Source: a virus | Strand: one strand, 5' to 3' | Length of the DNA: 18,657 bases | Virus genome (UHGV): UHGV-0107297 | Shown here: positions 2,951 through 17,305 of the stretch, piece after piece | Layout of the letters: every line of letters begins with the position of its first letter | Position numbering within the stretch: the stretch's first letter is position 1 | Notes under the pieces: generated by a model | The model's database searches: none | Seen by the model: the letters and a program-made list of their open reading frames with translations, nothing else | What the model was told of the DNA's origin: nothing | Translations under genes and position numbers: made by a program

Positions 2951-3121
2951 GTCACTTCCCGTTATATTTATTTCCCACAAACTCGATTCCAATTTAAATA
3001 TATAAGGGTGATTGGCTGAATAGAGAATTTATTTAGGCAACACCTTCGAGAAAACGCGTTTTATTTCTAAGATTTTGATTTTTATTGGAGAAAAATTTTT
3101 TCGTTCCCGCATAAAAAACTC

Positions 3122-3227: not shown

Positions 3228-3878
3228 ATGTCTAACGTTACCATTTCTAAAAAATCCATTATCGACGCTGCTGTGGTTATCGCTAATGAGTTACAAGTTG
3301 CAGCCAACAACGCTACTCAGACTTATAACAATCATTATAAAAATGGTACACACACAAAAGCGGATAAAGCTAACATGCTTGCAGCGTCTACCAAACTAGC
3401 ATACTTCACCAACAACGTTTTAAACGCTGTTAATGATGAGAAATTAGCTGGTATCTTTTACTACGCGATTAAAGCAAGTAAACAAGCACCTGAAGCGTTT
3501 TTCCGTGAAGCTATGACCAATAGCTATTCACTCGAAAAACTGGTTTATCTGGTTAAATCTATTAAAGCTGGAAAGTGTGTTTATTCCGTCGCTGATATGT
3601 CCGGATCTCGTGTATTCGCTTTAATCGATATGATTAACGACGAGATCGACACGTTCACCAATGGCGCTGTTTTCGATTTAATGAATGAAGCGAAAAAAGC
3701 CAACGAAATAAAATTAGACGCAGGATACACTCAAGCCAACCAGCTTATCAATCTTTGCGAACGTCTGGGACTGGTCGAAAAAATCAAAGGAATGGGTGCA
3801 GCGAAAAACGGATCACAGCAATATCGCTTCGTTAAAAATGATTTTTATAACTATCTGGCTGATGCTTTCAAAGCGTAA
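3228..3878 (+). CDS. hypothetical 216-aa protein, AT-rich gene
   Basis: SD AAGGA before ATG; low-GC composition unlike flanking genes; no motif recognised. Confidence 0.7.
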   Translation: MSNVTISKKSIIDAAVVIANELQVAANNATQTYNNHYKNGTHTKADKANMLAASTKLAYFTNNVLNAVNDEKLAGIFYYAIKASKQAPEAFFREAMTNSYSLEKLVYLVKSIKAGKCVYSVADMSGSRVFALIDMINDEIDTFTNGAVFDLMNEAKKANEIKLDAGYTQANQLINLCERLGLVEKIKGMGAAKNGSQQYRFVKNDFYNYLADAFKA

Positions 3879-4159: not shown

Positions 4160-4165
4160 AATCGA

Positions 4166-4190
4166 GCGCCCACTATGGGCGCTTTTTTCG
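4166..4190 (+). terminator. rho-independent terminator, copy 2 of the same 19-bp palindrome
   Basis: AGCGCCCACTATGGGCGCT at 4166-4184 followed by TTTTTTC. Confidence 0.7.
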
Positions 4191-4589
4191 TTTCCAATAC
4201 TCCCACCATAACGCGCCATCATTAGCGCGTTTTTTATTGTCTTTAACTCGCTCCAACAACATAAAAATAAGCACCAAAATAACGCCATAGACGCGCTTTT
4301 ATATCCTTGTTAGTACATACACATTACTTAACACATTAACGCGCTTAAAACGCGTTATATTGCGCTATAGAGTATGGTTAATCATTGGCTTTTAGTCTTG
4401 CTATGTGATCCGCGTTTATTTGTCGGCGCGGATCGGCTCTTTGTGTTGTTTTGTATCCGCTCGCATATGATTGCCACGTTGGGCAACGTGTACGCGCTTA
4501 CAGTGATTTACCCACGGATTCACATAATCACATAGCGAAAGCTATCTGGATGGCCCAGGGGCTGAAACCCCCACCAGCGCTACCCCAGC

Positions 4590-4780
4590 GCCGCTACGCA
4601 ATTTCTGGCGCGATTCCGGGTTTCTCCCGCTCAGTTTTCTACATAAAGGCGACCCCCGCCGTTTCCCGAAAAAATCTTGGCCGTTTCCCGTCGGCTCATG
4701 AATGCGTTCCTCGCCGTTTCTGAAAATTTCCCTGCGGCAGCTGGTGGCTATAGAGAAAGGGCCGTTTCTGGCCCTCTTCT
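4590..4780. repeat. structured non-coding region with GCCGTTTCCCG / GCCGTTTCTG direct repeats (region A)
   Basis: Copies at about 4659, 4680, 4713 and 4761, plus gggtttctcccg at about 4611; shares CGTTTC(CC)TGAAAA...TTTCCCTGCGGC with 8693-8731. Confidence 0.5.
4758..4775 (-). terminator. terminator of CDS 4784-5266
   Basis: Minus strand reads AGGGCC-AGAAAC-GGCCCT then TTCTCTAT immediately after the stop. Confidence 0.45.
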
Positions 4781-4783
4781 CAG

Positions 4784-5266
4784 TTACACGCCATCAAGGA
4801 TGTGGATGCGGTTGCTTGCGTATACATTCAGCATAAAGTTAGCGCAAAACAGTTTCCATGTGTCAACGCCAGCGGCATACGTAATGTTTTTGCATTTTAT
4901 TGCATTGTTGGCGATCCGCATCCCCTGCGATACTGCTTCATCGTCGGAAAATTTGAACGACGATTGAGTTTTAATCCAGACAGAAATCTGCGTAGCGAAC
5001 TCAATCAGCTTGGACTGGCAGAATCGCCCGGAGCGTACCGGGAAGACAAATGTTCCGAAGCCAGAATTTGCGACATACGCTTTCTCAATTACCCGTGAGT
5101 AACGACGTTTGCAAATGATGTCGCGTGCAATAATGCATTTTTCTTGTGCTGACAGTTCTACCGTCTCATTGTCGCGCCATGCACCAAGTACTCGTTTTTC
5201 AATATCAGAGAACGTTACAGCGATATTGCCATGTGCGGGTGCGTTTACAGTAGCGATAAAATTCAT
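4784..5266 (-). CDS. hypothetical 160-aa protein
   Basis: SD AAGGAA 8 nt before ATG at 5266; box copy upstream. Confidence 0.65.
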   Translation of the reverse strand: MNFIATVNAPAHGNIAVTFSDIEKRVLGAWRDNETVELSAQEKCIIARDIICKRRYSRVIEKAYVANSGFGTFVFPVRSGRFCQSKLIEFATQISVWIKTQSSFKFSDDEAVSQGMRIANNAIKCKNITYAAGVDTWKLFCANFMLNVYASNRIHILDGV

Positions 5267-5282
5267 GATTAATTCCTTATCG

Positions 5283-5320
5283 TAAATAACAAATTGTTTT
5301 CTTGTTGGTGTTAATTATCG
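5283..5320 (-). promoter_or_regulatory. conserved box copy 1 (AAACAAATTGTTTTCTTGTTGGTGTTAATTATCG)
   Basis: Palindromic core AACAAATTGTT; minus-strand TTGACG-17-TAATTA overlaps it; about 20 nt before the SD of CDS 4784-5266. Confidence 0.5.
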
Positions 5321-5441
5321 TTGTACGAATAAGGCGTCAAAGTGGAAAGTTGCGGTAGCCGGACGGGAACAGGTGGGTTTGTCGGTTGCCTGGAGGTAAG
5401 AGGTTGGTGTTTTTAGCCTGCGGGAAACAGGATGGTCATTT

Positions 5442-5465
5442 AAGGCCACCAGCATTGGTGGCCTT
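5442..5465. terminator. GC hairpin AAGGCCACCA-GCAT-TGGTGGCCTT 3' of CDS 5471-5758
   Basis: Perfect 10-bp stem; no clean U-tract on either strand, so terminator or stabilising stem-loop. Confidence 0.35.
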
Positions 5466-5470
5466 ACTCT

Positions 5471-5758
5471 TTAGTGGAGCAGACCGATGTCGATGGTATC
5501 CCCTGAATCATCCACACGGATCATCAGCATGGCGAAGGCGTTTAGTGGATAGCTTGCGTGCCATTCAGGGAAGCGGTCATCTCGCATGAAGTCGGCAATG
5601 TCGTAAACGCAGCCCTCAAAGTGGAAGAATCGCGTGCTTACCTGCTCGTCATATTCCACATGATCCATTTCTTGCTGTTCTGTTTCCGGCAAGTCCAGCC
5701 ATGATTCAAGGAATACATTTTGTGCTTTAGGGGTAATGGTGAAATCAGTCATGAGCAT
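5471..5758 (-). CDS. hypothetical acidic 95-aa protein
   Basis: Track ORF 5471-5884 trimmed to in-frame ATG at 5758 (GTGAGGAT-ATG); D/E-rich; box copy 2 upstream. Confidence 0.55.
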   Translation of the reverse strand: MLMTDFTITPKAQNVFLESWLDLPETEQQEMDHVEYDEQVSTRFFHFEGCVYDIADFMRDDRFPEWHASYPLNAFAMLMIRVDDSGDTIDIGLLH

Positions 5759-5770
5759 ATCCTCACTGCG

Positions 5771-5804
5771 TAAACATATTGTTTTCTTGTTGGTGTAATT
5801 ATCG
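5771..5804 (-). promoter_or_regulatory. conserved box copy 2 (TAAACATATTGTTTTCTTGTTGGTGTAATTATCG)
   Basis: Near-identical to copy 1; abuts the SD of CDS 5471-5758. Confidence 0.5.
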
Positions 5805-5912
5805 CAGTGTAGATAAGGCATAAAAGAAGTTAATACAGGCTGAATACACAAGAAAGGTTCTGGAAGTTGATAGCCAGGTTTCAAACTAACCTTCGGTTAT
5901 TAAAAGTCATTT

Positions 5913-5936
5913 AAGACCACCAATGCTGGTGGCCTT
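5913..5936 (-). terminator. hairpin AAGACCACCA-ATGC-TGGTGGCCTT, relative of the 5442 hairpin
   Basis: 3' of the small ORF 5942-6085; minus strand continues AAATGACTTTTAAT. Confidence 0.4.
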
Positions 5937-5941
5937 AATAA

Positions 5942-6085
5942 TTATCGCCCGATTACGCTAAGGATCTTTTCCTCAACTGATTTGTTGTTGCGACTAAACT
6001 GCCTTGCGTATCTTATGACAGAAGAGGCGTTTCGCTTTCTGACCATCTCGGCTCTCTCCTTCAGGCGTTTCTTGAAATCGCCCAT
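5942..6085 (-). CDS. unannotated small basic ORF, 47 aa (MGDFKKRLKERAEMVRKRNASSVIRYARQFSRNNKSVEEKILSVIGR)
   Basis: ATG 2 nt after stop of CDS 6088-6462 (TAA-AT-ATG), GGTGG SD-like upstream, hairpin directly downstream; below the track length cutoff. Confidence 0.3.
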   Translation of the reverse strand: MGDFKKRLKERAEMVRKRNASSVIRYARQFSRNNKSVEEKILSVIGR

Positions 6086-6087
6086 AT

Positions 6088-6462
6088 TTACCACCAGGCA
6101 CGGAACGTCAGTCTGTTATTGTGAAAGTCGTGGTTCCTGATCAGGTCTTCCACAAGTTTTTTCAGCTTATCCACGTCATGCCAGTAACCTTCATCGTACT
6201 CCTGACTGCCGAAGAAAAAACCTTCCCGGGTAGGTAAGTACACTTCGCAATTACTTTCGTTTATGTGCATCAAATGAGCCTTCAGAAAACAAATGTCATT
6301 CATCGTTAATTCTAAAAGCTCACAATTTTCGACTTCACCTACGTTGCGCTCCATCCACCCAACGAGCGCATTGAACTTACGGAAGTAAGCAACCTGCTTT
6401 CTGGATGCCTCGTTATTCAGATCGTTTTTAGGCTGCGTCTCGATATAGATATCAAGTCCCAT
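6088..6462 (-). CDS. hypothetical acidic 124-aa protein
   Basis: Track ORF begins with GTG at 6504 inside the box; in-frame ATG at 6462 has SD TAAGGATA. Confidence 0.6.
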   Translation of the reverse strand: MGLDIYIETQPKNDLNNEASRKQVAYFRKFNALVGWMERNVGEVENCELLELTMNDICFLKAHLMHINESNCEVYLPTREGFFFGSQEYDEGYWHDVDKLKKLVEDLIRNHDFHNNRLTFRAWW

Positions 6463-6513
6463 GATGGTATCCTTATTAAGTTGCTTCAGTGAAATCATTT
6501 TCACAAATCAGAT

Positions 6514-6540
6514 AAGGCAGAAAACAAATTGTTATCGGGA
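6514..6540. promoter_or_regulatory. conserved box copy 3, inverted orientation (AAGGCAGAAAACAAATTGTTATCGGG)
   Basis: Same palindromic core, flank on the other side; lies between the 6541-6570 terminator and CDS 6088-6462. Confidence 0.45.
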
Positions 6541-6570
6541 ATAAGAAAATGGCGCGGTTTACGCGCCATT
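6541..6570 (-). terminator. rho-independent terminator of CDS 6580-6975
   Basis: Minus strand: AATGGCGCG-TAAAC-CGCGCCATT then TTCTTATT. Confidence 0.6.
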
Positions 6571-6579
6571 CAAAGAGGA

Positions 6580-6975
6580 TTAAGCGAATACGCTTTCAGG
6601 GACAATGGTGTCGATCTTTTCGCCGGAGATTATTCGCAGACCGTGTTGTCCCATCCAGGTACTATTGGTATTTAAACTCGATGTATAAACCGCATCGACC
6701 TTTTTCATCAAATTTTCAAACAACGTCTGATCCGCGCCACGGAAATGAGTTTCCAGTTTTATCAGTAAAGGGTCAGAAGCATTACTGATGCTTTGGTAAC
6801 GCACCGAATATTTTCCCTTTGTGGCCTCGCCGGTGCGAGTTAAGGTACTGGTGTGAACTTCTTCGCCGGAGGCATTATCGCGTAGCACAATTGTAATTTT
6901 TGCAACTTTGTCTCCATTTTCCGTCTCTGATGCATAATACATATCCAGGGTCAGATTTTCGCGTTTAACGGTCAT
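6580..6975 (-). CDS. hypothetical 131-aa protein
   Basis: Strong SD ACTAAGGAGAGTGAA before ATG at 6975. Confidence 0.7.
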   Translation of the reverse strand: MTVKRENLTLDMYYASETENGDKVAKITIVLRDNASGEEVHTSTLTRTGEATKGKYSVRYQSISNASDPLLIKLETHFRGADQTLFENLMKKVDAVYTSSLNTNSTWMGQHGLRIISGEKIDTIVPESVFA

Positions 6976-7030
6976 TTCACTCTCCTTAGTGTTTAATTTT
7001 TAATTTTATTATCATAAGTAAGTACTTACA

Positions 7031-7062
7031 ATACAAAAAAGCCCCGAAGGATTGGCGGGGCT
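7031..7062 (-). terminator. rho-independent terminator of CDS 7097-7408
   Basis: Minus strand: AGCCCCGCC-AATCC-TTCGGGGCT then TTTTTTGTATTG. Confidence 0.7.
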
Positions 7063-7096
7063 GTCGTACATTCGACTAACTACTGCTTGCACATGT

Positions 7097-7408
7097 TTAA
7101 GCTACCGCCTGAACAGACGCTCGTTGGATCTCTTGTTGGGCGACACGGTTGGCTTCCATCAGCGCCAGTTCAAGCTGGTCCTCTGGCCACATTTTCTGGA
7201 CCGACATCCACCCTCTTCCACGCTGGCGACGAACTACCATCACATAGCGCGTAAAATTGCCCGCGTCGAAGGTAATGGCTTTTTCACGAAACAGACGGAT
7301 AGAAGTCCCATTCGCTACGATATCCAGCAATGTGAGATGCCCCATTAAGGTTGGTTTTTCTTTTCTCTCCTGACCTTCAGCAAGACCCAGCACCAATGAA
7401 GTATTCAT
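7097..7408 (-). CDS. hypothetical 103-aa protein
   Basis: Track ORF trimmed to in-frame ATG at 7408 (MNTSLVLG) with SD GGAG; box copy 4 upstream. Confidence 0.55.
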   Translation of the reverse strand: MNTSLVLGLAEGQERKEKPTLMGHLTLLDIVANGTSIRLFREKAITFDAGNFTRYVMVVRRQRGRGWMSVQKMWPEDQLELALMEANRVAQQEIQRASVQAVA

Positions 7409-7418
7409 CACCACTCCG

Positions 7419-7455
7419 TAAACAAATTGTTTTCTCAATGGCGTAAATAATACCA
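7419..7455 (-). promoter_or_regulatory. conserved box copy 4, subfamily b (AAACAAATTGTTTTCTCAATGGCGTAAATAATACC)
   Basis: Same core with a different distal flank, shared with copy 5. Confidence 0.5.
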
Positions 7456-7536
7456 GTGTAAAAACGGCTACAAAGCATATTGCTCAGGCACATGAATTAT
7501 CTAAAGGTGGTTCTTCCCTGCGGCTACAGAGAAGTT

Positions 7537-7559
7537 AAGCCAGCAGGCGGTGCTGGCTT
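7537..7559 (-). terminator. hairpin AAGCCAGCA-GGCGG-TGCTGGCTT 3' of CDS 7569-7898
   Basis: 9-bp stem; weak U-tract. Confidence 0.3.
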
Positions 7560-7568
7560 TGGTTGGGT

Positions 7569-7898
7569 TTACGCGAATACATCAAGGAACTCCTGAACGT
7601 CCCAATGCTGGACAAGGTGAAGATAGAGCTTAGAAATCACGTCATTCTCGCTATCGCATGTGAAGTAGTACTTCTGGCTGCGGTTGTATGTATCCACACA
7701 AAATTCGCTCATATCCATAAAGTCAGCATCATCACCCAGGTCGCAAATAATCAAAGCAGGAGCATCATCACGAGTCATCAGCTCAAGCACCCAGCGCGAA
7801 TTGATCAGCGTGGAAGACCAACCTTCTAACTCATAAAACTGGTCAAACTCTTTTTGAGTCATTTTCTTGATTTGGTTGATGTCGATATTTGCAAACAT
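7569..7898 (-). CDS. hypothetical acidic 109-aa protein
   Basis: Track ORF trimmed to in-frame ATG at 7898 (MFANIDIN) with SD AAGGA; D-rich. Confidence 0.55.
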   Translation of the reverse strand: MFANIDINQIKKMTQKEFDQFYELEGWSSTLINSRWVLELMTRDDAPALIICDLGDDADFMDMSEFCVDTYNRSQKYYFTCDSENDVISKLYLHLVQHWDVQEFLDVFA

Positions 7899-7909
7899 AA
7901 CGCAATCCT

Positions 7910-7945
7910 TAAACATGTTGTTTTCTGAATTGCGTAAACAATACC
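7910..7945 (-). promoter_or_regulatory. conserved box copy 5, subfamily b (AAACATGTTGTTTTCTGAATTGCGTAAACAATACC)
   Basis: Aligns with copy 4 over about 35 bp. Confidence 0.5.
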
Positions 7946-8009
7946 AGTAAGAAAACGGCCACAAAGTATATCGTTACGGTGCTGCGCTGCCCCGGAGGTT
8001 AATAGCGAC

Positions 8010-8030
8010 AAAAGCCACCGTGCTGGTGGC
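8010..8030 (-). terminator. rho-independent terminator of CDS 8038-8256
   Basis: Minus strand: GCCACCAGCACGGTGGC then TTTTGTCGC. Confidence 0.5.
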
Positions 8031-8037
8031 CTCACTC

Positions 8038-8256
8038 TTAATCTTCGTCGCCCGGGAACTCGCTGTGTACCGCGTCCACCAGCTCCCGCTTTTCATCTTC
8101 ACTCAGCAGGTGCCAGATATCCTTCCCTTTGGGCGATTCCCCTTCTGCCGGGACGAACGACCACAACTTGCGGTACAACTCCGGCCCCACTGCATCCAGA
8201 CACTCAGCCAGGGAATCCACGCCCCACACCTCAACCGTCACAGGCATCTTAATCAT
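8038..8256 (-). CDS. hypothetical acidic 72-aa protein
   Basis: ATG at 8256 preceded by GTGAGGATGAAGAG; D/E-rich. Confidence 0.55.
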   Translation of the reverse strand: MIKMPVTVEVWGVDSLAECLDAVGPELYRKLWSFVPAEGESPKGKDIWHLLSEDEKRELVDAVHSEFPGDED

Positions 8257-8286
8257 CTCTTCATCCTCACTTCGTTTATATAACGT

Positions 8287-8322
8287 CTAAACATGTTGTT
8301 TACTTGTTGGTGTTATTATCGC
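8287..8322 (-). promoter_or_regulatory. conserved box copy 6 (AAACATGTTGTTTACTTGTTGGTGTTATTATCG)
   Basis: Subfamily a; upstream of CDS 8038-8256. Confidence 0.5.
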
Positions 8323-8589
8323 AATAAGACAAAGGCGGAAAAGGATTTTATGTCGTGAAAGCCAGGCTGGGCAGTGAATATCCGGGAACGACACGGGAGC
8401 CAGTATTTACGATATTCTGCTCTACGCGCGCCACGGGGCTGGTGGGCAGAATATCCTTCTCCCCGAAAACCTACTGAAATAGCTTGAGACCCAATGATGG
8501 TCTGGCAGAATGGAGTCCAGTAGCTGCACGAGAGGGAATGACACTCCCCCGCGATTTTCAGGCGAGTGAAGAGTAAGGCGCACTCCCGA

Positions 8590-8770
8590 AGATTTCCCGC
8601 ACCGCTCCCGCAGTCGTCCCTCACTCTGTACCGGGATGTACCCGTTTCCCGACCGGCAGCCAGCCTTTCCCCGGTTCGTATAGCGGGATTCCCACCGTTT
8701 CCCTGAAAACCTCAAGCCTTTTCCCTGCGGCGACGCTCCCGTTCCTGAAAAGGGACATAGCTTTCCCGGA
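8590..8770. repeat. cluster of about 7 YTTTCCC(G) repeats (region B)
   Basis: gatttcccgc 8591, cccgtttcccgacc 8641, cctttccccgg 8665, ccgtttccctg 8695, ccttttccctgcgg 8718, cccgttcctg 8738, gctttcccgg 8760; related to region A. Confidence 0.5.
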
Positions 8771-8954
8771 TGGCCCGAAGGCTGACCGAAGGGGTGGAAA
8801 GGGACGTTACGGGGGATGAAAACTATGGCTTGAATTTATGCGGAAAAAGTGGCGATACCCCTCCTTCCCTTCCCACTTATACCTCCCACGAATTTTCTCT
8901 CTTATGTGGGCATAAACCTTCCCTCTGATAACGCTCTATACGGCGAGTATTCCT

Positions 8955-9480
8955 TTGGGTGAAATGGGTGGTTTGTTCTTTCTACCGGCATATGTGGTTT
9001 CGTTCTTCTTGAGGTGGTTCTTCTCTGTGTTTTCGTCTGGGTTGTTCTCGTCGTTTTGGTGAGTGTTCTTCTCCGTGTATGGAGTAATGGCAGGTGCGCT
9101 TTTCTCTTCGTTTACGTGAAATGATGAAAGTGTGGGTAATGGCAGTAGGGCGCTTTAGTTGTTCTCCGCATATGAAGTAATGGCGTTCCCTGCTATTCAG
9201 GAATTTGCGCTCTCTTTCGGGGTAATGGTGGGTAAACGAGATTGTGACGGCTCCTGTTCTTGTCTGGGTTTGTCCGGGGTTTCGTTCTGGCTGTTCTTCT
9301 CCGTGTATTGGGTAATGACGTATCGGGGTTTGCGCGTGCGAACCGCGTTCTCGGTTGCCTGGGAATATTAGGTGGGTGGTCTGTAGCCTGGGGCAATGAG
9401 GTGGGTCTTTTCGGTAGTCTGACAGGAAGAGGTGGGTGTTTCCGGGATTGTGGGTAATGGCGTCTCTGGGTTTCCTGTGG
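8955..9480. repeat. degenerate G/T-rich repeat array, no convincing ORF
   Basis: About 22-bp GKTKKTTCTTCTC units at 8960-9080; GTAATGG at 9084, 9136, 9177, 9222, 9312 (GTAATGA) and 9455; a 26-bp block GTTCTTCTCCGTGTATNGRGTAATGRC at 9065 and 9293; strong G+T strand bias. Confidence 0.6.
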
Positions 9481-9546
9481 GGGTTGTTAACTTGTTTTCT
9501 TATGCCTGAAAACAACTTGTTTAGATGCCCAATATAACGCAACGGG

Positions 9547-9571
9547 AGCGCTTCTGAGCGCTTCTGTTTTT
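9547..9571 (+). terminator. plus-strand rho-independent terminator at the right end of the repeat array
   Basis: AGCGC-TTCTGA-GCGCT hairpin followed by TCTGTTTTTGAG. Confidence 0.45.
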
Positions 9572-9714
9572 GAGTGATATCACGAGTCGTTTTTGACGTT
9601 TTGGTCGCAGGGAGATGGATTCTGGTGCGCAGGATTTTGGGTATAAGAGATGGCTTGCGAAAACGTCAACTTTTTAGACCAAATCAGAGGAAAGCGTTGA
9701 CTTTTCGTTGACGT

Positions 9715-9748
9715 GTTATTTATTTGTTTTCTTATGGGTGTAATTGGC
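9715..9748 (-). promoter_or_regulatory. degenerate conserved-box copy (TTATTTATTTGTTTTCTTATGGGTGTAATTGG), no gene downstream
   Basis: Matches the subfamily-a flank with only half of the palindrome; adjacent GTTGAC/GTCAAC repeats at 9664-9712. Confidence 0.3.
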
Positions 9749-9865
9749 TTAAATGCCTTGTCACCCCTGGGCTGGGGTAGGTTGGAGAGGTGGGGGAAGT
9801 GGCGATCAACGGACTCTTATAGAAATCCTCAATTTGTGACCGCCAATGTCAACGAGTTGCAGCCG

Positions 9866-10492
9866 TTAGTCGTTTAGGTAGTAATTAGGCACGCGAACGT
9901 AGAAATTCTCGTCACCGATCATTTCGATAGTGATGTTAATGTCATTACCGTTATCCAGTGTAGCCGTGGCTTTGTAGAACTTGTCCGTCACTTTGTCCTG
10001 AATTGTTACCTTCATGCATTTAGATGCTTCTGAACCGTTATTTTCTTTCAGAATAGTGGTAACTATAGGGCAAGCAGCTTCTTCAAGCGCTGAATCTGCG
10101 TTGAAGCTATACACGAAAAATGATGCAGCAAAGGCAACAATCCATACGATAAACAGCAGTCGGTTACTTCCAAGAACCGTCGCTCGTTTCCAGAGATACA
10201 CAGGGGGGATAAAGAACCCACATAAGAATGATGGTGGCTCATAGCCTGCCTCAGTCAAATTCATGCGATCGGCGACCAGCAGTCCAAGCCCAATGACGAA
10301 CGAAATCACCATAACGTAATTGTCGTACTCAGCAGGGGGGACGCTGACAACAAACGGCAGTATTGCTATAAGCCACGCGTAGAGGTTTTTAACTGATTTT
10401 TTTTCTAAAGTATCGATTTCCATTACATCCATTCCATTTTGAAATACAAGCGGGTATATGATATCAACTTTCCAGGTAATTATTCCCGCCAT
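9866..10492 (-). CDS. predicted integral membrane protein, 208 aa, with about 80-aa soluble C-terminal domain
   Basis: ATG at 10492 is 15 nt after the upstream stop; hydrophobic segments LYAWLIAILPFVVSV, YVMVISFVIGLGLLV, LLFIVWIVAFAASFFVY. Confidence 0.65.
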   Translation of the reverse strand: MAGIITWKVDIIYPLVFQNGMDVMEIDTLEKKSVKNLYAWLIAILPFVVSVPPAEYDNYVMVISFVIGLGLLVADRMNLTEAGYEPPSFLCGFFIPPVYLWKRATVLGSNRLLFIVWIVAFAASFFVYSFNADSALEEAACPIVTTILKENNGSEASKCMKVTIQDKVTDKFYKATATLDNGNDINITIEMIGDENFYVRVPNYYLND

Positions 10493-10507
10493 TGCTAGTA
10501 GTTATAT

Positions 10508-10828
10508 CTACCAATCCCATGCTGGCATTCCATCCACCAGCTCCGCATCACAGTCAAATTGTACCGAATCATACCCGGCATCCCGTATGGCCTGTATGTT
10601 AGAGATCGCCTCTTGGGAAATGCCGTAATCACGCAATTCTTCCTTCCAGTCATTCCCTCGCATTCCAGCACGAACAATCCATCCATACTGTGTACCGTGT
10701 ACCCAATTCAACCCGCGATCAGTAAGTGGGTCGAAGCAGGCAATGGGTAGCCGTTCTGAATCCGCTGCCGTGACGTGGGCGGTGCTGATCACCGCCGTCT
10801 TATACGATTCGGTGATTTTCAGCATCAT
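10508..10828 (-). CDS. hypothetical 106-aa protein
   Basis: Strong SD CCAAAGGAGAAGGC before ATG at 10828; start overlaps upstream stop (ATGA). Confidence 0.7.
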   Translation of the reverse strand: MMLKITESYKTAVISTAHVTAADSERLPIACFDPLTDRGLNWVHGTQYGWIVRAGMRGNDWKEELRDYGISQEAISNIQAIRDAGYDSVQFDCDAELVDGMPAWDW

Positions 10829-11061
10829 GCCTTCTCCTTTGGAAACAGAATGTTGGCCGTGTCAGAAATGACATCCCAATTCACGCCGACGCTGGCATCA
10901 TGGCACTCTTTGATTTTTCGCAAAACCTGAACGCACTGTTCGTCAGTCAGGTCTGGTCGCCCTTCACCTACATCTTCCTTGTGCCACATCACCATCAGCA
11001 GCGGCTCGTCTTCTGGGTAGTTCTCCAGCTTTTCGATAATTTCTTTCGCGGTTCCGAACAT
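10825..11061 (-). CDS. hypothetical acidic 78-aa protein
   Basis: Track start at 11079 is a TTG inside the box; in-frame ATG at 11061 has SD AAGGAG. Confidence 0.6.
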   Translation of the reverse strand: MFGTAKEIIEKLENYPEDEPLLMVMWHKEDVGEGRPDLTDEQCVQVLRKIKECHDASVGVNWDVISDTANILFPKEKA

Positions 11062-11072
11062 GATTAACTCCT

Positions 11073-11106
11073 TAAACAATTTGTTTTCTTATTGGTATTA
11101 TTATCT
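11073..11106 (-). promoter_or_regulatory. conserved box copy 7 (AAACAATTTGTTTTCTTATTGGTATTATTATCTC)
   Basis: Palindrome abuts the SD of CDS 10825-11061. Confidence 0.5.
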
Positions 11107-11117
11107 CAAATAACGAA

Positions 11118-11140
11118 AGGCAGAAAACAAGATGTTTAAG
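11118..11140. promoter_or_regulatory. conserved box copy 8, inverted (GGCAGAAAACAAGATGTTTAAGGG)
   Basis: Back-to-back with copy 7; same GGCAGAAAACAA flank as copy 3. Confidence 0.4.
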
Positions 11141-11146
11141 GGATGA

Positions 11147-11413
11147 CTAGGTGAGTTTGAAGTCGTCTATGTCATCAACAAACTCCATATACCTGGCTTC
11201 GACACTCGACAATCTGATCAGATACGCAAGCCCGTAACTTAGTGAAGTGGGTTGCTCCAGCACAAATTCGAACCCATCCTCATGCGTTTTACCAAGCCAG
11301 AACCCCCCACCGTATTCTTTTTCACGTTGGAAGAAAACGAACTGTCCGGGTATTAGGTGCTTGAGTGCTTCGCCCCTATAGACGATCACATATTTAGAAT
11401 TCTTGCTGCCCAT
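11147..11413 (-). CDS. hypothetical 88-aa protein
   Basis: Track ORF begins with TTG at 11470; in-frame ATG at 11413 has SD GCGAGGCGAGCA; start uncertain. Confidence 0.5.
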   Translation of the reverse strand: MGSKNSKYVIVYRGEALKHLIPGQFVFFQREKEYGGGFWLGKTHEDGFEFVLEQPTSLSYGLAYLIRLSSVEARYMEFVDDIDDFKLT

Positions 11414-11486
11414 TGCTCGCCTCGCAATACTGCACATATAAACAGTGGTATTTATTACGGTACTGGTCAACTTTACGGGTTAATTG

Positions 11487-11518
11487 AATAACAAGATGGT
11501 GAAAACAATTTGTTTTGG
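11487..11518 (+). promoter_or_regulatory. conserved box copy 9 (AACAAGATGGTGAAAACAATTTGTTTTGGCG)
   Basis: Core GAAAACAATTTGTTTT; about 85 nt upstream of plus-strand CDS 11601. Confidence 0.45.
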
Positions 11519-11600
11519 CGCTTGAGATTTTGCAAATCGCACCTACATGGAAAACGGCAATTTTTGAAACCTGATTTGACCCATGTGAAAGGAGGAAACG

Positions 11601-11804
11601 ATGAAGACCTATGATCGCAACCGTAACACTATCACTACCGGCAGCCGAGTGATGGTGGCAACGAATGGTGCAACGGGAGTCATCAAGGAAATCTGCGGAG
11701 AAGGCAAATCAGAAGAACAATTACGCCGCTCTGACTGCGTGTCTATCGAAGGTGTGGAAGATCTGTTCTGCCCAATGGATTTAGTTCGCCTGGGATTCCA
11801 ATAA
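11601..11804 (+). CDS. hypothetical 67-aa protein
   Basis: Strong SD GAAAGGAGGAAACG before ATG; no motif recognised. Confidence 0.65.
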   Translation: MKTYDRNRNTITTGSRVMVATNGATGVIKEICGEGKSEEQLRRSDCVSIEGVEDLFCPMDLVRLGFQ

Positions 11805-11805
11805 T

Positions 11806-11852
11806 TACACCACTAATTAAACAAATTGTTTAAGGCCACAAATAATGGCCTT
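11806..11852. promoter_or_regulatory. conserved box copy 10 fused to a GC hairpin
   Basis: ATAATTACACCACTAATTAAACAAATTGTTT followed directly by AAGGCCA-CAAATAA-TGGCCTT (11832-11852), between convergent genes. Confidence 0.4.
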
Positions 11853-11859
11853 ATCTGGC

Positions 11860-12558
11860 TTACGGAACAGCAGTAATCAGATCGCAAATGCCTGTTTTAG
11901 TTAAATCACTATTTAGCTTCTGAAAATTGGCATTCAGCATTGCGGTATGTATTCGATTCTCAAGTTCAAAGAAGAGATCGATCTTGCCCTCTTTGGCTGC
12001 CACCTTCTTCCAAATATTCACCTGGTCATCTGCGATACGACTTGCGCAGGTGAACAAGAACGAACTCCCTCTGGGAAGGGATGTCGTGCTGTAGTATTCA
12101 CCGTCAACTTCAATATACTTAGCTCGGAATGACTCCAGAGTTAGCTTTTTACCGCTCTCAGCCTGCTTTGTGTCTGCCTTGCTTGTCTTTTCCTGAACTT
12201 CAGGCTGTTTCTGCACAGGCTTTGGTGTCTCATTGACCACCGCAGTGCTGGCCGAACCATCCAAACTCTTGAGGCCATTAATTTGGATTAGATAAGCCAA
12301 CTCCAGAGTCTTATCACCAGTGAGTTTTCCACGCATACTTACCCATTGACGCTGAACCGTCTTTAAGGCGTCTGCGTCCCCCGGGTTTGCTTTGAGTGCG
12401 TTGGAATAGGTAGAGCTAAGTTGTTCGTCTAATTTTGACAGGCGTTCGTTATCGCAGATTTTGTGTTCGATTTCTGCCGAAGCCTTTTGGCAGTCAAAGC
12501 TGGCTGCAAATACAGCCGGCGATGCCACCAACAATGATGCCAGTAGGATATTTTTCAT
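11860..12558 (-). CDS. secreted protein with DUF1311 / LprI-like (lysozyme-inhibitor family) N-terminal domain, 232 aa
   Basis: Track start is GTG at 12564; in-frame ATG at 12558 has SD GGAG; signal peptide MKNILLASLLVASPAVFA; spaced Cys pattern FDCQKASAEIEHKICDN...QRQWV typical of DUF1311 as recalled. Confidence 0.65.
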   Translation of the reverse strand: MKNILLASLLVASPAVFAASFDCQKASAEIEHKICDNERLSKLDEQLSSTYSNALKANPGDADALKTVQRQWVSMRGKLTGDKTLELAYLIQINGLKSLDGSASTAVVNETPKPVQKQPEVQEKTSKADTKQAESGKKLTLESFRAKYIEVDGEYYSTTSLPRGSSFLFTCASRIADDQVNIWKKVAAKEGKIDLFFELENRIHTAMLNANFQKLNSDLTKTGICDLITAVP

Positions 12559-12596
12559 ATTCACTCCATAAATATAAAAGCGCCTGACTATAGCAC

Positions 12597-12812
12597 TTAA
12601 CCGATTGCTTCTCTCATCTGATTGTGAAGCTCTTTCAGCCCATTACGTACCGCGTTCATGATACGTTCCAGGTATTGGTATCTGGGGTTTGGCACCGTTG
12701 GCCAACCGGCATACCACGGATCGTCACCAAACAGACTCAGCAGTTCGTTACCGACACCGAAACAGCAGCAACTTTCTTTTACGTCATCAGCGTTTTCTGC
12801 CTCGTCCCACAT
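12597..12812 (-). CDS. hypothetical 71-aa protein (weak)
   Basis: ATG ORF with weak SD; frame is open a further 87 nt upstream without a start. Confidence 0.3.
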   Translation of the reverse strand: MWDEAENADDVKESCCCFGVGNELLSLFGDDPWYAGWPTVPNPRYQYLERIMNAVRNGLKELHNQMREAIG

Positions 12813-12858
12813 ATTGCGGGCCTGCTCTGCGTCGATTTCTCTCTCTCCCTGCGCAACT

Positions 12859-13167
12859 TTATGATTTCGGATTTGACGAAAAGCAGGTTTGCGTCGTTGT
12901 CATCGTCGACCGTACTGAAGTGGCACACTGAATTTGGCCGTCTGTAATGGGCAGATCCGGCAACTGTTTAAAAACTTCCATCTGCTCATGGATACGCAGA
13001 AACCACCTTGCCAGCTCCATCTGCTCACCGCGGGTGAGGGGATTATTCAGCGGGGACTTAACAAAAGCGGAGACTCGCTCGACAATAGGCGGCGATCTTC
13101 GCCAGACGGTCACACATTTCGTTCTCGCGATGACCTGCATGGCCTTTAACCCACTTCCAGCGGACAT
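12859..13167 (-). CDS. hypothetical 102-aa ORF overlapping the 3' end of the rnhA homolog (weak)
   Basis: ATG at 13167 lies inside the RNase H frame (13058-13513) in another frame; may be spurious. Confidence 0.25.
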
Positions 13168-13513
13168 TATGACGACTGGCGGCCGCGTCGAGACGTTTCC
13201 AGAGATCCACGTTTTTGACTGGCTTCTTCTCAGACGTGATCCATCCGTTACGCTTCCAGCCTTTCATCCAGAGCGTCATGCCGTTTTTAAGATACTGGCT
13301 GTCGGAATGCAGGATCACGTTGCAGGGGTACTTCAGACGCTCCAGCGCAATCAGGGCGCCCATCATCTCCATCCGATTGTTGGTCGTGCTGTGGAAGCCC
13401 TCAGAAAGCTCGCGCTCTTCGCCTCGATACTGGAGAACGATGCCGTAACCGCCCGGCCCGCCCGGATTTTTGAGGCAGGAGCCATCACTGAATACTTTTA
13501 CGGTTTTGAGCTG
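13058..13513 (-). pseudogene. rnhA: RNase HI homolog with start codon replaced by CAG
   Basis: Translation [24 protein letters not shown]...[16 protein letters not shown]...HSDSQYL...[14 protein letters not shown]...[14 protein letters not shown] matches RNase HI along its length; codon at 13511-13513 is CAG where ATG is expected; no ATG/GTG/TTG in frame between the upstream TAA and internal Met at 13372. Confidence 0.6.
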
Positions 13514-13683
13514 GGGATTGAACTCGACTACGGGGGTTTTGAAGTTGGTACGGGATTGCTGGTGGGTTTGGTATTCGAACTGGCTCGGGCCAGTGCAATC
13601 GACAGCGAACTTTGTCAGCGCTTCATGCAGCTGGCAGCGGCTCGGTGGGCGTTACGTTTTACGATGCTTATTATGTGTAGCCC

Positions 13684-13712
13684 AATTAAAAAGACCACTA
13701 TATATAGTGGTC
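13684..13712 (-). terminator. rho-independent terminator of CDS 13752-14153
   Basis: Perfect 22-bp palindrome AGACCACTATATATAGTGGTCT followed on the minus strand by TTTTTAATTGG. Confidence 0.65.
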
Positions 13713-13751
13713 TCATGGTAATAGATAAGCACTTACCTATCAATTATCAAC

Positions 13752-14153
13752 TTATAAAATTCCAGCAAGAACATCGCGAACCTGACGGAATTGATCAGTT
13801 TGCATACCGGTGTAAATCGATGCGACAGCGTCCGCAAGGTGCTCGTTTTTATTCACCAGCACTTCCTTGCCCGATTGCTTCCGGCGCAACCACGGGGCGT
13901 TTGGCTGCTTCTGCGTAGCCCACTGAATGATCTCTTCTTTCGACGTAGTCAGCTTATTCCCGACATAGTACTTAATCTCGTTTGGCGTGACCTGTATCAG
14001 TGGCTTATCCACACACGCCAGTACGCCAAGACAACCACCATAAGAAACCATCGCTCTAGCAGATTGACTGCCTACTGGCAGTTCACAGAACACTAAATGA
14101 ACTTGGTCAATCAGTGGCTTAATACCACGCCAAATCTCGTTCAACCGCCGCAT
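13752..14153 (-). CDS. hypothetical 133-aa protein
   Basis: ATG ORF with terminator downstream; no motif assigned confidently. Confidence 0.5.
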   Translation of the reverse strand: MRRLNEIWRGIKPLIDQVHLVFCELPVGSQSARAMVSYGGCLGVLACVDKPLIQVTPNEIKYYVGNKLTTSKEEIIQWATQKQPNAPWLRRKQSGKEVLVNKNEHLADAVASIYTGMQTDQFRQVRDVLAGIL

Positions 14154-14187
14154 ATCGTCACTGTTAACGCGAACTTGCTTTTTCGTA

Positions 14188-14466
14188 TCACCAGCTTACC
14201 ACCTTGAGACCCAACTCTTTGATGATCCACTCGTAAGTTTCGGTCACGAAATGCAGAACGGAAGGTGATATAGCACCGCGAACATGGAAGGTATCACCAG
14301 CTACCAGCATGTGCTTACAGCCAGCAGCTTTCATCGCTTTGGCCGCCTCCTTCGTAGCGTCCAGTTGGATCTCCAGCCGAGAGTTAAGCCCGTCAGCGTT
14401 TGTTGTCGCAAAAGCATCCCAACGATGATAATGGGGATCTGATATTACCCCGTATGGCAATGTCAT
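14188..14466 (-). CDS. 92-aa ORF with N-terminal metallophosphoesterase (SbcD/Mre11-like) motifs; probably truncated
   Basis: ISDPHYH (DxH motif I) and LVAGDTFH (GD motif II) at SbcD-like spacing, but ORF stops after 92 aa before the expected GNH(D/E) motif. Confidence 0.4.
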   Translation of the reverse strand: MTLPYGVISDPHYHRWDAFATTNADGLNSRLEIQLDATKEAAKAMKAAGCKHMLVAGDTFHVRGAISPSVLHFVTETYEWIIKELGLKVVSW

Positions 14467-14809
14467 GTGTCTTTTCCTTTGTGGTTATTTTGATACAAAT
14501 TCTAAGCGTGCATAAGAGGCATACAACCCAGACAACACGGCACACAAAAGAATATAAAGGCACATGATAATGACAAAAAAATAAGTAAGTAAATACCTAT
14601 CAGATAGGGCAGCAACGATTTCTAAACGTCACAAGCAATTTTATGAGAGCAGTCATTTACTGATGACAAGAAATGAAAAAGGAGAACGGACGGTGAAGTT
14701 GTGAGATGACATTTACGGCGTTTGCGTGCGTCGTCTTCAAACGCATCCGTCGGCCACAGTTTCTGCTCTTGAATAAAATTCACTCATGCATTAATCCCTA
14801 AAGCTCTCA

Positions 14810-14826
14810 GTGTCTTTCTAAGACAC
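14810..14826. terminator. hairpin GTGTCTT-TCT-AAGACAC 3' of CDS 14863-15507
   Basis: 7-bp stem; followed on the plus strand by CATATTTTATG. Confidence 0.3.
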
Positions 14827-14862
14827 CATATTTTATGCCCGGTAAAAAGCATGAGTTTGCCT

Positions 14863-15507
14863 TTAAAACGTCTCTGAGGGCTTCTGACGCGCTCTGCTAA
14901 TGTCTATTACCCCAGCTTTTGGACGAGGGTCTACAAGATTCAACTCTTCAGCACTGTGATACTCCGTGTCGAACTCCCGATCGACATGTCGAATGTAAAT
15001 GGCTGTCAGAAGGCTGTTATCATTCAGAAAGTGTCCGTAAGATTTGCGAATTACTTCGCCAACCTTCTCAATCTTCTCTCCGCCCATGCAGAGATGGTTA
15101 AATCGGCTGTGTTTCCGCAGTATTTCATCCACCGGGCCTGAGTAGACCTTATCAACTCTCCCGAACCGGATGATATTTCCAGTATCAGCTTCAACCAGAC
15201 AAACGAGTTTGCCAGGTTCGACACGATCTCGCCAAGTGACACCAGAGCGCAGTGTGTTGAAGTAGGGAGCATCCAATCCGATGATCGGTTTACGAAATGC
15301 TAGTAGTGGCACGTAACGTATGCAGCTGTTTAGGTGGAAATGCGCACCGGCGTCGTGGAGTTTAAGCCGGGTTTCGTTAATCGGGCATTTCGAAGCAATG
15401 CCGCAAAGGTCGCAGAGCAACTTCTGTTTGTTCAGACTAGTGTTTGATTCAATGGTGTAGGAGCCATCTTCAAGACGGCGAACCCAGCGCGTGCGTTTAA
15501 GATCCAT
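14863..15507 (-). CDS. hypothetical Cys-rich 214-aa protein
   Basis: ATG at 15507; CDLCGIASKCP...HLNSC cluster suggests a zinc-binding module; family not recognised. Confidence 0.6.
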   Translation of the reverse strand: MDLKRTRWVRRLEDGSYTIESNTSLNKQKLLCDLCGIASKCPINETRLKLHDAGAHFHLNSCIRYVPLLAFRKPIIGLDAPYFNTLRSGVTWRDRVEPGKLVCLVEADTGNIIRFGRVDKVYSGPVDEILRKHSRFNHLCMGGEKIEKVGEVIRKSYGHFLNDNSLLTAIYIRHVDREFDTEYHSAEELNLVDPRPKAGVIDISRARQKPSETF

Positions 15508-15583
15508 AATTCTTGTTCAAATAATTTTGTCCGGGGCAACGATAACGGATAAGGCGCACCGGAGTTTGCAAATGCCTGTTTAC

Positions 15584-15664
15584 TTATTCACTTTATTCAC
15601 AGGCCCGATCCAATATTTAGATCCCCAGAGAGATCCTACAGAAGATCAAAAGAGATCCCCGATC
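15584..15664. promoter_or_regulatory. origin module copy A: tandem DnaA-box-like sites plus six GATC sites
   Basis: TTATTCACT/TTATTCACA at 15584-15601; GATC at 15607, 15620, 15632, 15644, 15654, 15661. Confidence 0.6.
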
Positions 15665-15702
15665 GTCTCCAGCGCTTGCGGTTACTGGCTTGAGAAGGGG
15701 TT

Positions 15703-15810
15703 ACTATCCACTATAGGGAGCAAAATAACCACTGTAGAGAGCATAATAACCGCTATGAAGAGCAAAACAACCTCTCTGGAGAGTAGTCGGTATCCACTGT
15801 AGTGAGTAGG
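15703..15810. repeat. iteron set A, 5 copies at 24-bp spacing
   Basis: ATCCACTATAGGGAGCA, AACCACTGTAGAGAGCA, AACCGCTATGAAGAGCA, AACCTCTCTGGAGAGTAG, ATCCACTGTAGTGAGTAG. Confidence 0.7.
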
Positions 15811-15967
15811 AGACAATGTTTTAACTGGATAACTCCGAGCCTGTTTTTCTGCGGCAGATGGCTGATATTCTTGGAAATATTGTAAATTTTGCGTTGCGGC
15901 GTGTTTATTTCGATCACACATTATCCCCAGAAGGGGAGTGATGCCTGATTTTGTAATTATCTGATTT

Positions 15968-16040
15968 TTATACACAGGCCCGATCCAGTAATTCAGATCC
16001 CTGTTAGAACCAAAGAGAACCACAAAGACCCAAAGAGATC
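15968..16040. promoter_or_regulatory. origin module copy B: DnaA-box-like site plus three GATC sites
   Basis: TTATACACA at 15968-15976 followed by the same GGCCCGATCC junction as copy A; GATC at 15982, 15996, 16037. Confidence 0.55.
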
Positions 16041-16087
16041 CCCGGCCCCTGCAAACCGTTGTGCCACATGGCTTTAGAGGTTATCGA

Positions 16088-16220
16088 TATCCACTATAGT
16101 GAGAAGAACAACCACTATAGAGAGTAAATCAACCACTATGGAGAGTAGAAAAACCGCTGTAGGCGGTAGGATAACCACTGTGATGGGTGCTACTATCCAC
16201 TGTAATCAGTAAAGGCACCC
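16088..16220. repeat. iteron set B, 6 copies at 24-bp spacing, immediately upstream of repA
   Basis: ATCCACTATAGTGAGAAG, AACCACTATAGAGAGTAA, AACCACTATGGAGAGTAG, AACCGCTGTAGGCGGTAG, AACCACTGTGATGGGTGC, ATCCACTGTAATCAGTAA. Confidence 0.75.
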
Positions 16221-16249
16221 AAGCCGTCGAATAAAAAGAGACATTTGGA

Positions 16250-17305
16250 ATGAGCGTAAACGACAATAAAAACATTGCGATAAGCGAAGCATTTTCCGAA
16301 ACAGACAAAAAGACCGGCGAAGTTGTTACGTTAGTTCCTAACACCAACAACACAGTTCAGCCTGTTGCTCTGATGCGTCTTGGTCTCTTCGTTCCGACGC
16401 TGAAATCGACATCCAGGGGTAGAAAGGGGCAAATGGTCTCTATGGACGCCTCCGCTGAACTCAAACAGCTGTCTCTGGCCAAAGCCGAAGGGTACGAGGA
16501 TATAAGGATTGCTGGTCTTCGTCTTGATATGGATAACGATTTCAAAACATGGGTGGGCATCATCCACGCGTTCGCCAAGCACAAGGTTGTTGGTGACACC
16601 GTCACGTTGCCGTTCGTCGAGTTCGTCAGACTTTGTGGCATACCAACAGCCAGATCGTCCGCGAAGTTACGTAAGCGCCTGGACAGCTCTCTAAGTCGTA
16701 TCGCCACAAACACCATCTCATTCCGCAGCAAAGGCTCTGAAGAGTATTACGTTACGCACCTTGTGCAGACGGCAAAGTACAGTACCAAGAATGACACGGT
16801 CGAACTGAAGGCCGATCCTAAGATTTTCGAACTTTACCAGTTCGACAAAAAGGTGCTTTTGCAACTTCGGGCCATCAACGAACTCTCCAGAAAGGAATCC
16901 GCGCAGGCGCTCTACACCTTCATTGAAAGTTTGCCACCAGACCCGGCGCCAATCTCATTGGCTCGCTTACGCGCCAGACTTAACTTAACCAGCCGCACCA
17001 TTACCCAGAATGCGACAGTCAGGAAGGCGATGGAGCAGCTGCGAGAGATCGGCTATCTCGATTACACTGAAGTGAAACGCGGCAGCTCGGTCTACTTCGT
17101 CATCCACTATAGACGGCCGAAGTTACGTTCGGCACTGCCGCCATCTATGGCTACGCCTGAAGAGCCAGAAGATATCTTGCCAGGTGATGATCCGGAGGAC
17201 ATTATCGATGTTGCCCCTGAAGAAAAAGACGGGGAAATGGTCATGTTGAGCAAGGAAGAACTGGCGATTCTCGAAGAGCTGCGCAAGGCAAAGGCTCGCA
17301 AATAG
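16250..17305 (+). CDS. repA: iteron-binding replication initiator, RepFIB/P1 RepA family, 351 aa
   Basis: Flanked on both sides by iterons; conserved blocks recalled from RepFIB initiators ([62 protein letters not shown]). Confidence 0.85.

Follow-up and report, generated by a model that had tools for sequence, protein, structure and literature searches.

An open reading frame on the minus strand of the UHGV virus genome UHGV-0107297 encodes an RNase HI-like protein with the codon CAG at the position where the E. coli enzyme starts, which raises the question of whether this rnhA homolog has lost its start codon through mutation, is expressed by unusual means, or is the remnant of a longer gene. 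Within the window (the whole stretch of 18,657 nucleotides analysed here), this chimeric open frame occupies positions 13058..13654 (-), with 197 sense codons (13061-13651) situated between an upstream TAA (13652-13654) and the stop codon TAA (13058-13060). BlastP comparison of its translation identified 62% amino acid identity to residues 2-141 of E. coli RnhA (E = 7e-70), and the Pfam RNase_H domain (PF00075) was matched over positions 3-140/141 (E = 6.8e-46; 156 bits, cutoff 25.8). The motif VFSDGSC in the frame corresponds to IFTDGSC of E. coli RnhA and covers the first catalytic Asp (D10), and all four E. coli catalytic residues (D10, E48, D70 and D134) are aligned and conserved in both the BlastP and the family alignments. 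The comparisons with E. coli RnhA and Pfam RNase_H bear out the RNase HI homology and catalytic Asp proposed in an earlier, sequence-only reading of this DNA. The family match, however, extends beyond the 13058-13513 interval considered there, reaching further upstream to 13574 (-) and ending at 13086 (-). That reading also correctly placed the first in-frame ATG, GTG or TTG of the 197-codon frame at 13372, an ATG just ahead of the residue equivalent to E48. None of these three codons occurs in the 150 codons that lead up to and include the first catalytic Asp, and the only near-cognate codons ahead of the domain are CTG 13630 and CTG 13618, neither of which is preceded by a Shine-Dalgarno (SD) sequence. 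The start codon and ribosome-binding site expected before the domain of a translatable gene were thus not found. An exact look-up of the internal 104-aa ORF in a collection of 15 billion proteins returned no match, and an Rfam scan of the entire window at the gathering threshold returned zero RNA families.

SSU5 and the SSU5-like plasmids of E. coli and E. fergusonii align collinearly with the window apart from the gaps at 13085/86, 13570-74 and 14191-97, and this comparison identifies the window as an SSU5/pHCM2-type phage-plasmid. Matches to the region come from Salmonella phage SSU5 and from several hundred non-mobilizable plasmids hosted by E. coli, Salmonella (pHCM2, S. Typhi CT18), Klebsiella, Enterobacter and Cronobacter, with those inspected being of type IncFIB. 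The part of rnhA retained in the window (13086..13574, minus strand) comprises codons 21-183 of the 202-codon family gene, including the whole RNase H domain. In a local BLAST comparison with SSU5, positions 13086-13574 share 98.2% identity with SSU5_090 ('RNase H'), and the identity of the fragment to the rnhA of the E. coli plasmid NZ_CP110979.1 reaches 100% over 491 bp. With 98-100% nucleotide identity over 489-491 bp to the copies in SSU5, pHCM2, E. coli, Klebsiella and Cronobacter, and with a neighbourhood that follows the collinear SSU5-like backbone when the deletions described below are allowed for, the fragment has both the family core and the family synteny. The window also includes a variable segment of small hypothetical genes (4165-8300), which is far more diverged than the remaining window (69-90% identity to SSU5, with gaps). 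Furthermore, a palindromic motif of the type AGGTAAGT(nn)ACTTACCT / TAAGTAAGTAnnTACCTAT was observed by eye to recur in the intergenic regions ahead of the early genes of the family (window 13715-13745 and 14575-14600; NZ_CP110979.1 locus ~1425-1450 and ~2625-2650), and looks like a candidate repeated operator or promoter element.

Protein searches retrieved many homologs of the SSU5/pHCM2-family RNase HI, of 193-202 aa, from SSU5-like plasmids and phages. These proteins consist of a basic N-terminal extension of ~41 aa (MTTKTPAR...), a canonical RNase HI domain and a 19-aa tail, with the MTTKTP... N-terminus kept in homologs that are 67-96% identical to the query. In NZ_CP110979.1, the conserved ATG, accompanied by a GGAG SD, is located 41 codons upstream of the CAG and opens an intact ORF of 202 codons. 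Some annotated versions of the family gene are longer (214-254 aa) and start further upstream, which leaves the argument unaffected. In the window copy, the MTTKTP... extension with its ATG and GGAG SD is absent and family homology begins at codon 21, while the C-terminal tail SAADMPHK.DIGF... is likewise absent, with CRASLRFC* in its place. The family differs from the chromosomal E. coli RnhA (155 aa), with which it shares the aligned domain and catalytic residues, in carrying both the extension and a C-terminal tail of its own; the window gene is not a copy of the host enzyme.

Alignment with E. coli RnhA does place the CAG at 13511-13513 opposite Met1, as had been reported previously. An ordinary rnhA of the 155-aa type, in which a point mutation converted the ATG to CAG, would show this correspondence. 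Such a conversion, however, needs two substitutions, the same CAG is shared by SSU5 and the E. coli plasmid copies, and the position of Met1 is occupied in the family alignment by Gln, His, Arg, Lys or Asn, and never by Met. Because the intact relatives start 41 codons upstream and have a residue other than Met at this position, the CAG is, by family comparison, the native Gln codon and not a mutated ATG, and a point-mutated start was given a practically negligible probability. The view that an ATG had been replaced by CAG must consequently be abandoned; the apparent CAG start arose because a phage-plasmid RNase HI with a 41-residue extension was aligned to the shorter E. coli enzyme. A sequencing error at 13511-13513, for which a check had been proposed, is likewise excluded, since SSU5, hundreds of plasmids and an independent metagenome contig share the CAG.

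Several annotations of the family gene deserve comment. RefSeq/PGAP flags the NZ_CP110979.1 rnhA (locus 1442-2121) as 'frameshifted' although its 202-codon ORF is intact. A programmed frameshift was considered for this gene and rejected, as the ORF runs unbroken from the conserved ATG. Our guess is that the flag comes from over-extended N-termini in the reference proteins together with a variable poly-A run ahead of the true start. In the annotation of SSU5_090 itself, the start is placed at a GTG that lies 52 codons too far upstream. Two ENA metagenome proteins (P0040 and P0085) represent alleles of the family rnhA that are frameshifted near the C-terminus, and are either further inactivated copies or assembly errors.

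The termini of rnhA missing from the window can be traced to two of three deletion junctions (A, B and C), all of which fall within 1.1 kb and were resolved by three-way alignments in which the window was compared with the two parental sites of E. fergusonii pRHB41-C15_2. At junction A (13570..13574, minus strand), the 3' flank of a RuvC-like gene is joined to codon 21 of rnhA via a 5-bp microhomology, ATACC. The window is identical down to ...GCCAGTTCGAATACC to the intergenic DNA 3' of the RuvC-like gene in pRHB41-C15_2, including its terminator, and from ATACCAAACCCACC... on to rnhA from codon 21, with only the ATACC being common to the two parental sequences. The DNA missing here amounts to 7665 bp in comparison with pRHB41-C15_2, and ~11.5 kb in comparison with SSU5. 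This deletion took the promoter, SD, ATG and codons 1-20 of rnhA, as well as genes coding for an adenine methyltransferase, a 3'-5' exonuclease, an AAA ATPase, DHFR, thymidylate synthase and a MazG-like pyrophosphohydrolase. The upstream flank (13575..14197, minus strand) consists of the 3' part of the RuvC-like gene, a homolog of SSU5_077 assigned to the RuvC family by annotation in relatives, with a residual ORF at 13752-14153, and its downstream intergenic DNA. The latter contains a terminator-like hairpin and T-run at 13714-13691 (-), 40-60 bp behind which the rnhA fragment is located. A terminator belonging to an upstream gene had been recognised in the sequence-only reading; the terminator is present, but its gene is a neighbour of rnhA only on account of the junction A deletion, which brought the two together. 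A breakpoint close to this position was also observed in the rnhA-lacking plasmid pJH51-3 (CP095457.1), which departs from the canonical sequence 3' of the RuvC-like gene ~7 bp from junction A (window 13570-13581; CP095457.1 locus ~2995-3007).

At junction B (13084..13085, minus strand), rnhA breaks off at codon 183/184 and an Eaa-like gene takes over from its codon 5/6 through a 2-bp microhomology, TT, with the rnhA sequence ...GCCGCCTATT joined to the Eaa-like ATGAATGATCTGCTT|GTCGAGCGAG... in the three-way alignment. Approximately 5.09 kb is missing, with the loss of an SSU5_096-like gene, a large methyltransferase gene, a Rha/Ant gene and three small genes. The last 19 codons of rnhA (184-202) are gone, and the frame reads on into foreign sequence for nine codons (CRASLRFC) before a new stop is reached, CRASLRFC* being the Eaa-like gene sequence in a different reading frame. 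What is left of the Eaa-like gene (12859..13083, minus strand), a homolog of SSU5_097, lacks its ATG and first ~5 codons. The second ORF that had been seen to overlap the 3' end of rnhA (12859-13167, minus strand) does so, but it is the remnant of this next gene, fused by the second deletion, with the Eaa-like frame running by chance into rnhA sequence. A fourth window-specific deletion at ~12917-12928, indicated by comparison with SSU5, was rejected, as the plasmid of the E. fergusonii / E. coli type is collinear with the window there. A different deletion is found in pB379_2 (NZ_CP090457.1, locus ~3486-3490), where the Eaa-like gene is fused straight to the metallophosphoesterase gene, and hit coordinates indicate a deletion of this type in the Shigella plasmid NZ_CP058829.1. 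The Eaa-side breakpoint of pB379_2 lies 2 bp from junction B of the window (13084-13086), and the ending of both deletions in one codon suggests a breakpoint hotspot or a shared history.

At junction C (14196..14197, minus strand), the 5' part of an SbcD-like metallophosphoesterase gene passes, via a 2-bp microhomology, AA, into internal sequence of the RuvC-like gene. The metallophosphoesterase fragment (14188..14466, minus strand) retains 92 of ~361 codons and ends at a new stop just past the junction. The missing DNA, which includes an SbcC-like ATPase gene, is estimated at ~4.6 kb from the gene coordinates of pRHB41-C15_2 and not from alignment. The resulting row of fragments, namely the metallophosphoesterase 5' part, the RuvC-like 3' part, the rnhA core and the Eaa-like 3' part, preserves the ancestral gene order.

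Three junctions in so short a distance look unusual, and an assembly chimera or a sequencing error, with the junctions or the missing start being artefactual, would also fit with the lack of these junctions in finished plasmids. None of the three was found in the finished plasmids of PLSDB or RefSeq E. coli; junction-spanning queries against PLSDB plasmids, INPHARED phages and RefSeq complete E. coli were covered to at least 80% by no record, and no intermediate plasmids with just one or two of the junctions were found in PLSDB and RefSeq E. coli or, for the exact junction-A 30-mer, in GTDB, where 185,579 species genomes gave 0 matches. The same 30-mer, however, has one match in metagenome contigs. 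The independently assembled contig ERZ772897 NODE-3231 aligns to window positions 4703-17154 with 99.96% identity over 12,452 bp and without gaps, differing by five SNPs, all outside rnhA, and it therefore carries all three junctions. Moreover, an assembler is not misled by microhomologies of 2-5 bp. Since an independent contig has the identical arrangement, neither an assembly chimera nor an erroneous base call at the CAG can explain the finding, and an artefact was considered highly improbable.

The locus is very probably a non-functional rnhA remnant of an SSU5/pHCM2-type phage-plasmid, cut by deletions. Three illegitimate, microhomology-mediated deletions (5, 2 and 2 bp) have taken ~17 kb of the DNA-metabolism module, with two of the three cutting rnhA. 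One of these cuts eliminated the gene's expression signals and its first 20 codons, so that codon 21 now follows the 3' flank of the RuvC-like gene with its terminator, and the other eliminated codons 184-202 and left the frame joined to the Eaa-like gene fragment. The order or number of these events is an inference, and the three clustered microhomology junctions may represent one serial template-switching event. The deletion endpoints of the window may be hotspots, in view of the pB379_2 and pJH51-3 breakpoints located 2 bp and ~7 bp away. Judged by sequence, the fragment belongs to the SSU5/pHCM2 rnhA family by descent and keeps the RNase H fold signature, while its start and the family N- and C-termini are missing. 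The fragment is most likely not translated, since it has no promoter-proximal start codon and is positioned behind a terminator. Its 100% identity to a plasmid copy with an ATG and full frame indicates that the truncation is recent. The earlier suggestion of a recently inactivated pseudogene was therefore right in its outcome, with no usable start and complete identity over 491 bp to the NZ_CP110979.1 copy.

The other option offered in the sequence-only reading, expression by an unusual mechanism, has in its favour only that both cuts leave a complete Pfam RNase H domain, with all catalytic residues, in one open 197-codon frame free of internal damage, and that two CTG codons occur in frame upstream of the domain. 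Initiation at CTG 13630 or CTG 13618, or terminator read-through followed by reinitiation, would then yield, at a low level of translation, a working RNase HI whose N-terminus and tail are new, a scenario that was considered very unlikely given the lack of an SD at either CTG and the terminator hairpin 40-60 bp upstream. Very weak non-canonical initiation at one of these codons is still conceivable. The survival of the domain in one open frame could be due to chance, or could hint at retention. It is just as doubtful, with little probability attached to it, that the deletions spared exactly the full domain because its activity is useful and the domain is kept by selection. The lack of damage in the frame is explained by recency, considering the identity to the ATG-bearing plasmid copy, and the neighbouring genes are equally broken, which points to general decay and not to selection. 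Furthermore, rnhA is wholly lost in some relatives. The remnant interpretation is thus preferred, with the window fragment differing from the intact SSU5/pHCM2 RNase HI in its lack of promoter, SD, ATG, codons 1-20 and codons 184-202, and in having foreign sequence on both flanks.

Among these relatives, pB379_2, the Shigella plasmid, pJH51-3 and the 52-kb pRHB27-C18_3 have lost rnhA altogether via other deletions in the same module, and the DNA-metabolism module is thus dispensable for plasmid maintenance. Among the broad aligners, the most similar PLSDB plasmid is pRHB27-C18_3 (CP057419.1), with 99.2% identity over 84% of the window. This half-size SSU5-like plasmid has an IS100 insertion and its own deletions in the DNA-metabolism module, which suggests a lineage in reductive evolution. 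P1-like phage-plasmids have been described to become plain plasmids as their phage genes are lost (PMC10879196), and the present element resembles these reduced forms in that a phage module is lost while replication and partition genes stay. The elements described there are P1-like, whereas the backbone here is SSU5-like, with 18.7 kb of the element visible. Other deletions in the same module occur in the SSU5-like 52-kb relatives and in plasmids of 150-170 kb of uncharacterised make-up.

What remains of this known gene, from a known family of mobile elements, is an ordinary truncated pseudogene, and the finding matters chiefly as a correction, a pseudogene fragment being the appropriate annotation for the locus. 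All three microhomology-mediated deletions have been mapped at single-base resolution, and an independent metagenome contains the same allele. The window thereby provides a clean case of reductive decay in the DNA-metabolism module of an SSU5-like phage-plasmid.
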